This document shows positions 20,253 through 25,107 of a stretch of 64,000 nucleotides of DNA, piece after piece (within the stretch, counting starts at the first letter, position 1; the number at the start of each line of letters is the position of its first letter). The DNA is from a virus. The translations under genes were made by a program, and so were the position numbers. The stretch spans positions 38,496-102,495 of IMG/VR virus record IMGVR_UViG_3300021963_009388. One strand, given 5' to 3'. The notes beneath the pieces are model-generated. The model was not told the DNA's origin, searched no databases, and was given only the letters and a program-made list of their open reading frames with translations.

Positions 20253-20966
20253 GTGTTAATAAGCAAACTATATAAGAAACATGTAGGCGAAGACATATAT
20301 GTGGTAGGCACAGGGCCCACTGGAAGGCTGCTGCCTTCGTCTTTCTTCAACTCTAAAACATGCATAGGCCTTAACCAGGCCTATAAGCAATTCAGCTTAA
20401 CCTACAGCATAACGGCTCATCCTGAACTAGAGGTAGAGTACTGCGAACTAGCTAAAGTTAAAGCTGCTAATGTTACTAAGTGGATAGTAAAGCATAAAGC
20501 CCCAACGTACTTAAAGCTATATGACTCAACACGTTACGTCTTTCATACCTCAACATCCTGGGATGACTTTATAGGCAAAGACCCTGACAAACTATTTCTA
20601 GGCAGAGGAATACAGCAGACAGCCATAGATATAGCCGTTAGAATGGGCGCAGCGAATGTAATATTAGTCGGGGTTGACATGGACTCGTTAGGCGGAGATC
20701 ATCACGGGCATGATCAGCATGTGCGGTTTCAGGGTTTAAACCCTAAAGAAGCTTACAGAGAATATAGGCTTTGGACATATAAAGCGAAGAAGTTAGCTAG
20801 AGAAAAAGCTGGAGTTAATGTACTATCATTATCGCCCTTGTTGGGCTGCGGTGGAGATATACACCAAGAGGACTATGTTAAAGTTAGAAAAGAGCTCGGG
20901 CTTACGGAGCTGCCTAAGCCTAAAGATATATCAAACATTAAGCGTAAATCTATAGATTTACCTTGA
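20253..20966 (+). CDS. DUF115/MptE-like protein
   Basis: YVVGTGPT, IGLNQAY and ILVGVDM. Confidence 0.55.
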   Translation: MLISKLYKKHVGEDIYVVGTGPTGRLLPSSFFNSKTCIGLNQAYKQFSLTYSITAHPELEVEYCELAKVKAANVTKWIVKHKAPTYLKLYDSTRYVFHTSTSWDDFIGKDPDKLFLGRGIQQTAIDIAVRMGAANVILVGVDMDSLGGDHHGHDQHVRFQGLNPKEAYREYRLWTYKAKKLAREKAGVNVLSLSPLLGCGGDIHQEDYVKVRKELGLTELPKPKDISNIKRKSIDLP

Positions 20967-20997: not shown

Positions 20998-22173
20998 ATG
21001 GCAAGTAGATACGACAATCTTAGTGTGGCTATTGAGGCCACAATTAACATTAGCAAGAAGACTAAGCCCTACAGAATAGTAGACATCGGAGTGGGTAGCG
21101 GCTCCAAGGCTGAGCTCATGGTTAAACTAGCTAAGAAGCTGGGAAGATCCAACATTGAATACTATGGGTTTGACTTTTTTGAAGACGTTACTGACCTTGT
21201 AGCATCCAGCGAGTTTGCTCTTGGAATAGGCGTAAGCAGAGATAAGGCCAGGGAAATGGTTTTAAAGTCTGGAGCTGCAAAGGCTCAGCTCATTAAAGGC
21301 AACACTAATCAAACTCTTGCTCAGGCTAAGAAAGACATACCTATCGCAGCTGTAGTGTGCGTAGATGGAGGAGCCTCTCCTACCACAATAGCAAATGACA
21401 TTGAAAACGCCCTAAGCTTTTGCTCTGAAGGCACTTACATGGTTATAACCAACTGTATTTCTTCGACCTACTACAGAGGATCTGCCTTCATCATTAAGTC
21501 AGCTGCTATGCTTAAGAAAGAGTACAGCATCACTATTGAAGAAGCAGGCCCAGTAGACGTAGTAAGTGATAAGTATTCAGATGGCACTATAGCCATTAGC
21601 TGTATCATTCTAAAGTGCGCAGCTCAGCTTACTCCAGCAAAGTTAGAAGGCTTAGCTCACAAGCTATTAGTGGAGGCGTCTCCACAAGCTGACCCTGAGC
21701 CACAAGAGTATGTTCCCGAAGTAAGCTTTGTTCCAGAACCACCTAAGGAAATACCTGTTGAACAGGAGGCCAGCGCACCTGCTGGAGAGTCATTTCCCCA
21801 GAGTTGCAGTGGTGATACCGACGTACAATCAGTTCGAGTATGCGAAAATAGCTGTGGAAAGTTGCCTGAAGAACACTGCGAATTGCCTAGTGATTCTTGT
21901 GGACGACGGGAGTCCTCAGTGGAACCCTGCGGACTGGTCAAAGTATCCGAAGAGCCAGATGCTAATACACCGGTTCCCGAAGAACGACAAGAACCTGACT
22001 CGGTCGTGGAACAAGGGAATACAGATAGCACTGCAGAACAAGTGCCAGATAATAGTGGCAGCGAACTCAGACCTGAAGTTCCCCCCGAACTGGACAAAGG
22101 GAATAATAGAAACGCTAGACGCAGGCGCAGGCGCGGTGGGGCCGATGACGAACGCTCCGGGGCACAGGACTAG
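20998..22173 (+). CDS. class I SAM methyltransferase-like protein with acidic linker; 3' part overlaps the GT2 frame
   Basis: IVDIGVGSG, YYGFDFFE and VDGG; AGGAG RBS before the ATG at 20998. Confidence 0.65.
   Translation: MASRYDNLSVAIEATINISKKTKPYRIVDIGVGSGSKAELMVKLAKKLGRSNIEYYGFDFFEDVTDLVASSEFALGIGVSRDKAREMVLKSGAAKAQLIKGNTNQTLAQAKKDIPIAAVVCVDGGASPTTIANDIENALSFCSEGTYMVITNCISSTYYRGSAFIIKSAAMLKKEYSITIEEAGPVDVVSDKYSDGTIAISCIILKCAAQLTPAKLEGLAHKLLVEASPQADPEPQEYVPEVSFVPEPPKEIPVEQEASAPAGESFPQSCSGDTDVQSVRVCENSCGKLPEEHCELPSDSCGRRESSVEPCGLVKVSEEPDANTPVPEERQEPDSVVEQGNTDSTAEQVPDNSGSELRPEVPPELDKGNNRNARRRRRRGGADDERSGAQD
21670..21685. repeat. 16-bp palindrome, copy 3 (GTGGAGGCGTCTCCAC, 1 mismatch)
   Basis: Inside a CDS, encoding VEASP. 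Confidence 0.85.
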
Positions 22174-22531
22174 GCAGAACGTTAAGCATTGTATTCCTAA
22201 CTACAAAGTTAAAGACTCAGACGGGCACATTGCTAATGTCTCGTCTGAGTTAATTAAAAACCATACTGGAAGAGTAGACAAAGGCCCATTGAATGGTTTC
22301 TGCATAGCTGCCAAGGCAGCTACATGGAAAGCTGGGGCTTTTGCTTTTCCAGAGCATTTCTTTAATCCTAAGTTTAAGATGACCCGCAATGAAGATGAGC
22401 TTATGGGAAGGTGGAAGAAGCAAGGCATAAGCAGCTTAATAGCATGTTCAAGCTTTGTCTTTCATTACAGGGGAGTAACTAGGCGCCCTAGTGGAAAAGG
22501 AGCAGGTAGTGGTAACCTGAGAATAAAATGA
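21794..22531 (+). CDS. GT2 glycosyltransferase domain with no good start of its own; likely reached by a +1 shift from the upstream ORF
   Basis: FPRVAVVIPTYNQ, ILVDDGS, SWNKG, NSD and FVFHYRG. The listed start at 21728 is a TTG with no RBS. Confidence 0.75.
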   Translation, partial: FPRVAVVIPTYNQFEYAKIAVESCLKNTANCLVILVDDGSPQWNPADWSKYPKSQMLIHRFPKNDKNLTRSWNKGIQIALQNKCQIIVAANSDLKFPPNWTKGIIETLDAGAGAVGPMTNAPGHRTRQNVKHCIPNYKVKDSDGHIANVSSELIKNHTGRVDKGPLNGFCIAAKAATWKAGAFAFPEHFFNPKFKMTRNEDELMGRWKKQGISSLIACSSFVFHYRGVTRRPSGKGAGSGNLRIK

Positions 22532-22749
22532 ATAAGAAAAAGAAATTAGGCTCAAAGCTTAGATGCAGAGTAGCTAAGAAAAAACCAGCAGAGAAGATAG
22601 TAATAGCTAGAAAGGCAAGAGTATCTTCTAAAAGCTCAGATGACGGCATGAGCATAAAGGCAGTCAAAGCGCCTATCGTGAGGGCCAAGCGCGTTTCATC
22701 TGGGTCGTCTGATCAGCCTAAGCCCATAGATGACGGCTTAGTCCAATGA
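22528..22749 (+). CDS. small basic protein with (K/A)RVSS motifs
   Basis: 73 aa, coupled to both neighbours. Confidence 0.55.
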   Translation: MNKKKKLGSKLRCRVAKKKPAEKIVIARKARVSSKSSDDGMSIKAVKAPIVRAKRVSSGSSDQPKPIDDGLVQ

Positions 22750-25064: not shown

Positions 25065-25107
25065 CGTCCTGAGCAGGACGTTAACTTGCTCTTTTTTTAG
25101 CTATCAG
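25065..25107 (+). terminator. cassette 3 end: pseudoknot/hairpin plus T7-AGCTATCAG
   Basis: CGTCCTGAGCAGGACG-TTAAC-TTGCTC followed by T7. Confidence 0.65.

Follow-up and report, generated by a model that had tools for sequence, protein, structure and literature searches.

A 64,000-nucleotide (nt) stretch of DNA, part of a 102-kb IMG/VR virus record and here called the window, encodes a methyltransferase (MTase) and a family 2 glycosyltransferase (GT2) in two different frames of the same strand, with the C-terminal tail of the first protein coded over the N-terminal half of the second. We hold it nearly certain that this is a genuine, selected and conserved out-of-frame overlap, with purifying selection acting on both frames. 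The route by which ribosomes reach the GT2 frame is a separate question. Judged from the conservation of the sequence, a +1 slip at a UUU_C within the MTase gene, possibly acting beside internal starts in some lineages, has an even chance of being the conserved route.

An MTase and a GT2 lie in overlapping frames

The upstream gene is an open reading frame (ORF) that begins with an ATG at 20998 behind an AAGGAG Shine-Dalgarno (SD) sequence (Table 1). Its product carries the glycine-rich loop DIGVGSGS and matches Pfam PF13578 (Methyltransf_24) over residues 28-150 with 30.7 bits (cut-off 26.3), and a Foldseek search with the MTase returned class I MTases at E ~1e-7. By sequence and model, the predicted protein is a generic class I S-adenosylmethionine (SAM) enzyme. 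The AlphaFold 2 (AF2) model scored ~90 in the predicted local distance difference test (pLDDT) for residues 1-230 and <50 for residues 243-391.

In the +1 frame, the DNA around the frame break reads H-F-P-R-VAVVIPTYNQ, and β-strand 1 of the GT2 (VAVVIP) begins at 21803. The +1 product matches Pfam PF00535 (Glycos_transf_2) with 50.5 bits (cut-off 23.3), both Asp residues of its VDDGSP sequence, a DxD-type motif, are invariant, and its AF2 model is confident from about the Phe onward (mean pLDDT 87). The top Foldseek matches were the GT-A enzymes WrtF, AvpGT and K4CP (E ~1e-9). The predicted GT2 product is, on both sequence and modelled fold, a GT-A enzyme nearest to WrtF-, AvpGT- and K4CP-like structures.

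We searched viral and metagenome contigs for relatives and obtained 16 DNA loci of the clade, in which the label WIN denotes the window's own lineage. Counts of loci below refer to these DNA loci, and counts of clusters to protein sequences. Identity among the loci ranges from 75% down to 46% for the GT2 and from 54% down to 28% for the MTase. A second scan of viral contigs yielded one further, truncated locus only (L077).

The frame break recurs in independent assemblies and diverged relatives

An earlier, sequence-only reading of the window had described the MTase ORF as running ...AGESFP at TTT CCC (21793-21798), with GGAG (21784-21787) separated from the TTT by five bases. It read the +1 frame as TTC CCC, giving F-P and continuing RVAVVIPTYNQ, and the zero frame as staying open. 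All of this is borne out by the sequence, in which TTT (21793-95), CCC (21796-98) and a further C (21799) give ...AGESFPQ in frame 0 and TTC CCC AGA in frame +1, the zero frame continuing past TTT CCC for 124 more codons to a TAG at 22171-22173, and Pfam likewise confirmed that a nearby gene (18193) is an in-frame GT2-MTase fusion.

Deleting one C from the CCCC run would join the two frames, and the break could therefore be a single-base sequencing or assembly error in a gene that is truly an in-frame MTase-GT2 fusion. We found no actual support for such an error. Contigs from three separate studies cover 21300-22400 with no base inserted or deleted, and a metatranscriptome contig covering 21645-21840 is also free of indels; the TTTCCCC run (21793-21799) is thus the same in three DNA assemblies and one RNA contig. 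The RNA contig differs by a G>A change at 21801, which is silent in frame 0 and converts R to K in the +1 frame, and the same change occurs in a 99% relative (P0002). Homologues keep the break as well. In 16/16 loci, frame 0 encodes the MTase and frame +1 the GT2 despite different local sequence, and 40/40 MTase clusters run on in frame 0 through the tail. Frame 0 stays open for 120-136 codons past VIPTYNQ in all loci, apart from the 110 codons of L066, whose contig ends there. The independent assemblies and the diverged relatives refute the indel or homopolymer error that the sequence-only reading had offered as its alternative, and we give it a negligible probability.

Slippage by RNA polymerase on the T3C4 run would yield a minority of mRNAs lacking one base, and the fusion product that they encode would be identical to that of a ribosomal slip. 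The runs are short (3 T, 4 C), however, and unconserved, the corresponding sites of other lineages being TTTCAA, TTTCAG and TTTCGT, and the RNA contig is free of indels, though contigs hide rare variants. We regard transcriptional slippage as extremely improbable. Error, artefact and transcriptional slippage jointly account for a small share of the probability.

Both frames of the overlap are constrained

We calculated the chance of an open frame 0 exactly, from each lineage's GT2 residues and the window's codon usage over GT2 codons 1-122. This chance was 1.4e-7 for the window and reached at most 3e-6 across 11 lineages. The frame-0 stop falls at the same GT2 codon (122) in 8/11 lineages and at codons 128-138 in the rest.

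Codon choice in the GT2 provided a further measure of constraint. Where two lineages share a GT2 residue, codon identity is 0.63 inside the overlap versus 0.41 downstream of it, and third-position identity is 0.59 versus 0.38. Sliding-window codon identity is 0.6-0.84 up to column 120 and 0.30-0.47 just past the frame-0 stop. Among columns whose residue is invariant in seven lineages, a single codon is used in 25/58 inside the overlap versus 0/48 outside it (Fisher p = 1.5e-8). Simulated recoding gave an identity of 0.37 when codons were chosen freely and 0.40 when frame-0 stops alone were avoided. The observed 0.63 exceeds what stop avoidance supplies, and therefore points to constraint on the sequence of the tail beyond the openness of its frame.

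The zero-frame extension could in principle be an untranslated or functionless by-product of GT2 composition or codon bias. Such a reading draws on the predicted disorder of the tail, which has no known domain, and on the antisense frame, which is also long-open in many lineages, so that the stretch is poor in stop triplets. We consider it very unlikely, given an open-frame chance of 1e-7 to 3e-6 for every one of 11 lineages, a frame-0 stop at the same GT2 codon in most of them, and a synonymous identity that lies above the expected 0.40 and drops in a sharp step at that stop. Frame 0 is never interrupted, but the antisense frame is. The window's antisense ORF (21657-22097, minus strand, 146 amino acids (aa)) spans the dual-coding stretch, and in most relatives the same frame is open for 125-177 codons; it is cut short in L004 (56) and L002 (91) and is probably a side effect of a composition poor in stops.

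The MTase tail is restricted to one family

The 40 protein clusters homologous to the MTase ORF (385-448 aa) align over 94-100% of the ORF, most of them over 99-100%, tail included, and PF00535 was found in none of the 40. Among 1.84e9 representative proteins, the tail occurs in 9 clusters only, always at the C terminus of MTase_24 proteins, and a protein atlas search gave no look-alike for it (no match reaching 0.8). The tail would be the younger, overprinted frame, because the GT-A fold is ancient; on sequence and model grounds it looks overprinted de novo.

Tail residues 282-301 and 371-378 (window 21282-22167) hold a CX3CX7CX6C pattern and an RRRRRR run, both kept in the close group, and the Arg run is coded over the DAGAGAVGP loop of the GT2. 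We considered a zinc motif of four cysteines for the CX3CX7CX6C pattern, which is doubtful as the cysteines are lost in the distant members P0171-P0173.

Some MTase homologues are longer (636-655 aa), with an MptE-like domain (PF01973) fused N-terminally. The MptE-like gene is fused in frame to the MTase in L006-L008 and in clusters P0145, P0151, P0153 and P0157 (636-638 aa), with the tail still present; frame 0 is open from about 2500 in L006, L007 and L008. For P0156 (655 aa), PF01973 was the only domain detected. The window has the MptE-like gene (20253-20966) and the MTase as separate genes, 31 nt apart.

A conserved UUU_C marks the switch between frames

The frame break coincides with an invariant Phe inside an otherwise variable Pro/Glu-rich linker. 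An in-frame TTTC is present in 15/16 DNA loci, L012 being the exception, and the Phe codon is TTT in 15/15. At the protein level, Phe is followed by a residue with a C-initial codon in 47/49 clusters: across 42 clusters the next residue is P (27), Q (13), R (1) or L (1), and it is R, P or Q in five more distant ones. Codons for P and Q always begin with C, and those for R and L can, so the base C appears to be kept while the residue changes.

The better-conserved frame switches at this codon. Frame 0 is ahead over the 10 codons upstream of Phe (identity 0.27, versus 0.20 for frame +1), and frame +1 is ahead from Phe to VIPTYN (0.55, versus 0.31 for frame 0), where its Pro is conserved at 100%. 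Conservation of the +1 frame thus begins at the Phe, and upstream of TTC that frame looks non-coding. The open +1 frame 5' of TTC holds 20 canonical starts against an expectation of 18.2, which is no enrichment.

Several lineages have no canonical start upstream of TTC at all (L005, L009, L010, L011 and L062), and L011 has no ATG, GTG or TTG anywhere before the GT2 domain. The L011 GT2 retains 75/76 invariant residues and differs from that of L010, outside the overlap, by 34 synonymous versus 12 non-synonymous codons; it is under purifying selection. In L006 a +1-frame stop lies four codons before TTC. The one locus without TTTC, L012, has a clean GAGG-N6-ATG.

An SD-like GAGG lies 20-26 nt (in one tally 24-30 nt) 5' of the TTT in all 15 TTT_C loci. 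In L003 and L065, where TTTC is 22 codons from the GT2 domain, 15 codons have been inserted on its 3' side; GAGG-N23-TTTC thus moves as one block, the motif keeping its distance to the GAGG rather than to the domain.

These patterns are consistent with the following model. Most ribosomes on the MTase ORF would stay in frame 0 and produce the MTase with its tail. A minority would slip +1 with tRNA-Phe on UUU_C (21793-21796), re-pairing on UUC, and the slip product would be an MTase-linker-GT2 fusion of ~510 aa, joined at ...GESF|PRVAVVIPTYNQ. UUU_C would serve as the clade-wide route into the GT2 frame, with an ordinary internal start added or substituted in L064/L067, in L002/L061, in L012 and perhaps in the window itself (TTG 21758).

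An SD-like element and candidate GT2 starts

The Glu codon that contains the GAGG is GAG in 15/15 loci, and GAG supplies only ~50% of Glu codons. By this measure, the element looks to be under nucleotide-level selection as an SD. Its distance from the TTT is one without known effect on frameshifting. We weighed initiation inside the MTase ORF as the sole route to the GT2: ribosomes led by the conserved GAGG/GGAGG would make a separate GT2 of ~250 aa with no frameshift, and the conserved Phe codons would reflect residues that both proteins need. The fixed GAG is a constraint of the kind this predicts. We place the probability of internal initiation alone a little short of even.

Good SD-start pairs were found in a subset of lineages, in which an ATG or GTG stands 4-6 nt past the GAGG: AAGGAGG-N6-ATG in L064/L067, GAGG-N6-ATG in L012 and GAGGGA-N4-GTG in L002/L061. 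L012 is also a case in which the overlap coexists with an independent start. Seven other lineages have an in-frame CTG 9-15 nt past the GAGG. The window offers a TTG at 21758 behind AAGGA, with an SD whose free energy (dG -5.1) equals the median of the phage's 55 gene starts, or else the near-cognate CTG 21779/21782, 9-12 nt past AGGAGG. The sequence-only reading had held that the GT2 has no credible independent start; this fails for the window, given AAGGA-N8-TTG, and for the lineages with SD+ATG or SD+GTG, and stands for five relatives.

Initiation alone leaves much of the pattern aside. Upstream of the conserved +1-frame residues, canonical starts are missing from five lineages, one of which, L011, is without any. 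Starts are not enriched above background, and their positions vary by lineage. TTG 21758 is missing from the 91% and 85% relatives, because V-Q and I-Q there cannot give a +1-frame TTG. In L006/L007 a +1-frame stop falls 9 nt past GGAGG. Lineages restricted to CTG would have to initiate at CUG codons, which are very rare in bacteria as starts. Neither the constant C after TTT nor the retention of TTTC in L003/L065 is explained by internal initiation.

Two GTG codons that encode Val-Val of β-strand 1 (21809 and 21812) were also considered as starts and rejected. They have no SD (dG -2.4, equal to background), conservation in the +1 frame already begins 5' of them (Pro 100%), and L011 has GTA and GTT at these positions, changes that are synonymous in the GT2 frame.

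Weighing a slip against internal initiation

A number of observations weigh against a slip, among them the conserved GAGG, its spacing from the TTT, and the lineages in which GAGG precedes an ATG, a GTG or a CTG. No frameshift stimulator of any tested kind was found, whether an A-site codon that is slow or a stop, an SD ~3 nt upstream of the site, or an RNA structure downstream of it. The A site holds no stop codon, the zero-frame A-site codon in the window being sense CCC; nor are A-site codons rare across lineages (mean relative synonymous codon usage 0.99), though CCC is rare in the window. Folding of the 100 nt 3' of the site revealed no stimulatory RNA structure (z -0.2 to +1.1). The window's long ORFs contain 65 in-frame copies of TTT_C, and therefore the motif alone cannot define a slip site. 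The 201 GT2 homologues are mostly stand-alone proteins of 240-285 aa, as initiation of a separate GT2 would have it, and our search found no in-frame MTase-GT2 fusion of this order, only GT2-MTase (the reverse, P0126) or GT2-GT2.

Details of the originally proposed site did not survive comparison. The SD-like GGAG, likened to that of prfB, has the N5 spacing in only three or four lineages, and CCC_C, proposed as part of the slippery run, is confined to the WIN and L005 lineages, so that UUU_C is the conserved part. The likeness to prfB breaks down over the wrong spacing and the lack of an A-site stop. We also examined a hairpin, CCAGC-N6-GCTGG (21770-21785), and rejected it: its change in L005 resembles covariation, but it is absent in L003 and L064 and is explicable by Ser/Ala codons.

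Neither model covers everything. The slip leaves GAGG unexplained, and initiation leaves TTT_C and the start-less lineages unexplained. Of the proposal that one gene gives two products, dual coding is strongly supported, and a programmed +1 shift as the mechanism is plausible but unproven. A more ambitious reading, which we advance tentatively and at somewhat less than even odds, combines the two conserved elements. A clade-wide cassette of GAGG, 20-26 nt and UUU_C would shunt a fixed minority of ribosomes into the +1 frame to make a bifunctional MTase-GT2, and unshifted ribosomes would make a selected, de novo disordered tail.

Comparison with known recoding sites and overlapping genes

Bacterial ribosomes are known to be liable to shift +1 at UUU_Ynn with no stop codon 3' of it, and this appears to be the Yersinia YopN-TyeA site (PMC5009743). 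The phage arrangement resembles that system in having the same UUU_C in bacterial translation, no adjacent stop, and a slip that in the phage would likewise fuse the products of neighbouring genes (PMC5009743). It differs in that the zero frame continues here for 124 conserved codons rather than ending nearby, and in that the partners are two enzymes whose fusion is predicted.

The +1 site of influenza A PA-X, UCC_UUU_CGU, has been reported without an evident stimulator (PMC5009743). PA-X and the amalgavirus-type UUU_CGN sites share with the proposed phage site a tRNA-Phe that would slip from UUU to UUC, out of a continuing long ORF into an overlapping +1 ORF with no evident stimulator, and L010 and L011 carry exactly UUU_CGU. 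Those systems, however, involve eukaryotic ribosomes and RNA viruses, and their +1 ORF is short and novel; in the phage overlap the ancient enzyme occupies the +1 ORF, and the novelty lies in how the zero frame continues.

Frameshifting in prfB, which encodes release factor 2 (RF2), needs CUU_UGA, with its A-site stop, and an SD 3 nt upstream (PMC5009743). The analogy drawn in the sequence-only reading lies in a +1 shift, proposed for the phage, onto a U-rich codon behind a G-rich element; the phage site has no stop, its GGAG 5 nt upstream is unconserved, and its conserved GAGG lies 20-26 nt upstream. The window's UUU_CCC_C (Phe-Pro) also recalls E. coli pheL (UUC_CCC_UGA) and Listeria phage PSA, and CCC_C could re-pair in +1 (PMC3082878; PMC5009743). 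At the pheL and PSA sites, unlike ours, the proline codon is followed by a stop or a pseudoknot, and the restriction of CCC_C to two lineages means that it is not a conserved element here.

A long +1 overlap in a double-stranded DNA (dsDNA) phage is familiar from lambda Rz/Rz1, in which Rz1 is wholly nested and starts at a clear site of its own. As in Rz/Rz1 and other overprinted phage genes, the newer frame here is family-restricted and without known fold. The differences are that the new frame forms a C-terminal extension of the upstream enzyme, lying over the catalytic nucleotide-binding half of a GT-A domain, and that several lineages are without a start for the downstream gene. Overprinting has been reviewed (PMC8227390).

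Significance of the overlap

Long out-of-frame overlaps are textbook cases in tiny viruses and are rarely documented in phages above 100 kb, where genome size is not limiting. The overlap described here has been maintained while both proteins diverged to 30-50% identity. Because it crosses the nucleotide-binding half of a GT-A enzyme, it is a clean example from nature of a gene born by overprinting while both frames are strongly constrained. Standard gene callers cannot annotate an overlap of this kind; Prodigal, for one, allows genes on the same strand to overlap by ~60 nt at most. One of the two, the GT2 or the MTase tail, is therefore miscalled in the databases.

If the UUU_C slip is true, it would add one more conserved bacterial-type +1 recoding site, and would fix how much of one enzyme is made relative to another in a phage glycan-modification pathway. 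If the cassette reading is true, two enzymes would be fused by a +1 frameshift that a dsDNA phage puts to use, its dual-coding stretch would rank among the longest known for a large phage, and an SD-like element would be acting at a spacing without known frameshift effect.

Features and genomic setting

Table 1. Features of the MTase/GT2 overlap, in window positions
Feature	Coordinates	Strand	Description or basis
Frame-0 ORF, 391 aa	20998..22173	+	Class I SAM MTase core (1-230), Pro/Glu-rich linker, conserved disordered C-terminal tail (predicted)
AAGGA-N8-TTG, candidate independent GT2 start TTG 21758	21745..21760	+	AAGGA 21745-49; anti-SD dG -5.1
AGGAGG, conserved SD-like element (core GAGG)	21764..21769	+	Junction alignment; anti-SD dG -10.3
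GGAG, five bases 5' of TTT	21784..21787	+	WIN, L004 and L009 lineages only; L062 has GGGG
TTT CCC C, candidate +1 slip site (TTT_C 21793-21796 is the conserved part)	21793..21799	+	Phe in both frames (TTT / TTC)
GT2 (GT-A fold) coding sequence, counted from the Phe codon	21794..22531	+	Pfam, AF2, Foldseek
Dual-coding stretch, ~125 codons (~375 bases)	21797..22173	+	MTase tail (frame 0) over GT2 N-terminal half including VDDGSP (+1)
GTG GTG, Val-Val of β-strand 1, candidate starts, rejected	21809..21814	+	No SD
Frame-0 stop TAG closing the overlap	22171..22173	+	Sequence

The MTase and GT2 genes sit inside a long same-strand run of glycan-building genes, a cluster that appears to end at a terminator (25071-25091); no internal promoter or terminator signals rose above shuffles. 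G+C content is 0.52-0.55 over 21850-22220 versus ~0.43 nearby, and no tRNA genes were found within the window.

By blastn, the region matched none of 50,697 phage records. Eight large ORFs (448-1303 aa, window 14393-52492) had no match in PHROGs at E <=1e-5, and the MTase-tail ORF and the GT2 were likewise without match there. The phage lineage is very poorly charted. Our literature search found no paper on such an MTase/GT2 arrangement.

At least half of the sampled words of the stretch are present in 14 DNA runs from eight studies, mostly of lake or other freshwater. A genome contig scan for cellular relatives of the MTase domain returned only Pelagibacteraceae single-cell assemblies (L080-L083), at 27-32% identity and with no adjoining GT2; these matches are too weak to name a host.

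Downstream, the TGA that ends the +1 ORF (22529-22531) overlaps the ATG of the next gene as ATGA. The gene that starts at this overlap is a small, very basic ORF (22528-22749, 73 aa), rich in Lys and Arg. In some distant GT2 homologues (P0014 and P0017), a basic KKKKRR tail is attached to the protein at the end where this 73-aa ORF lies in the window.

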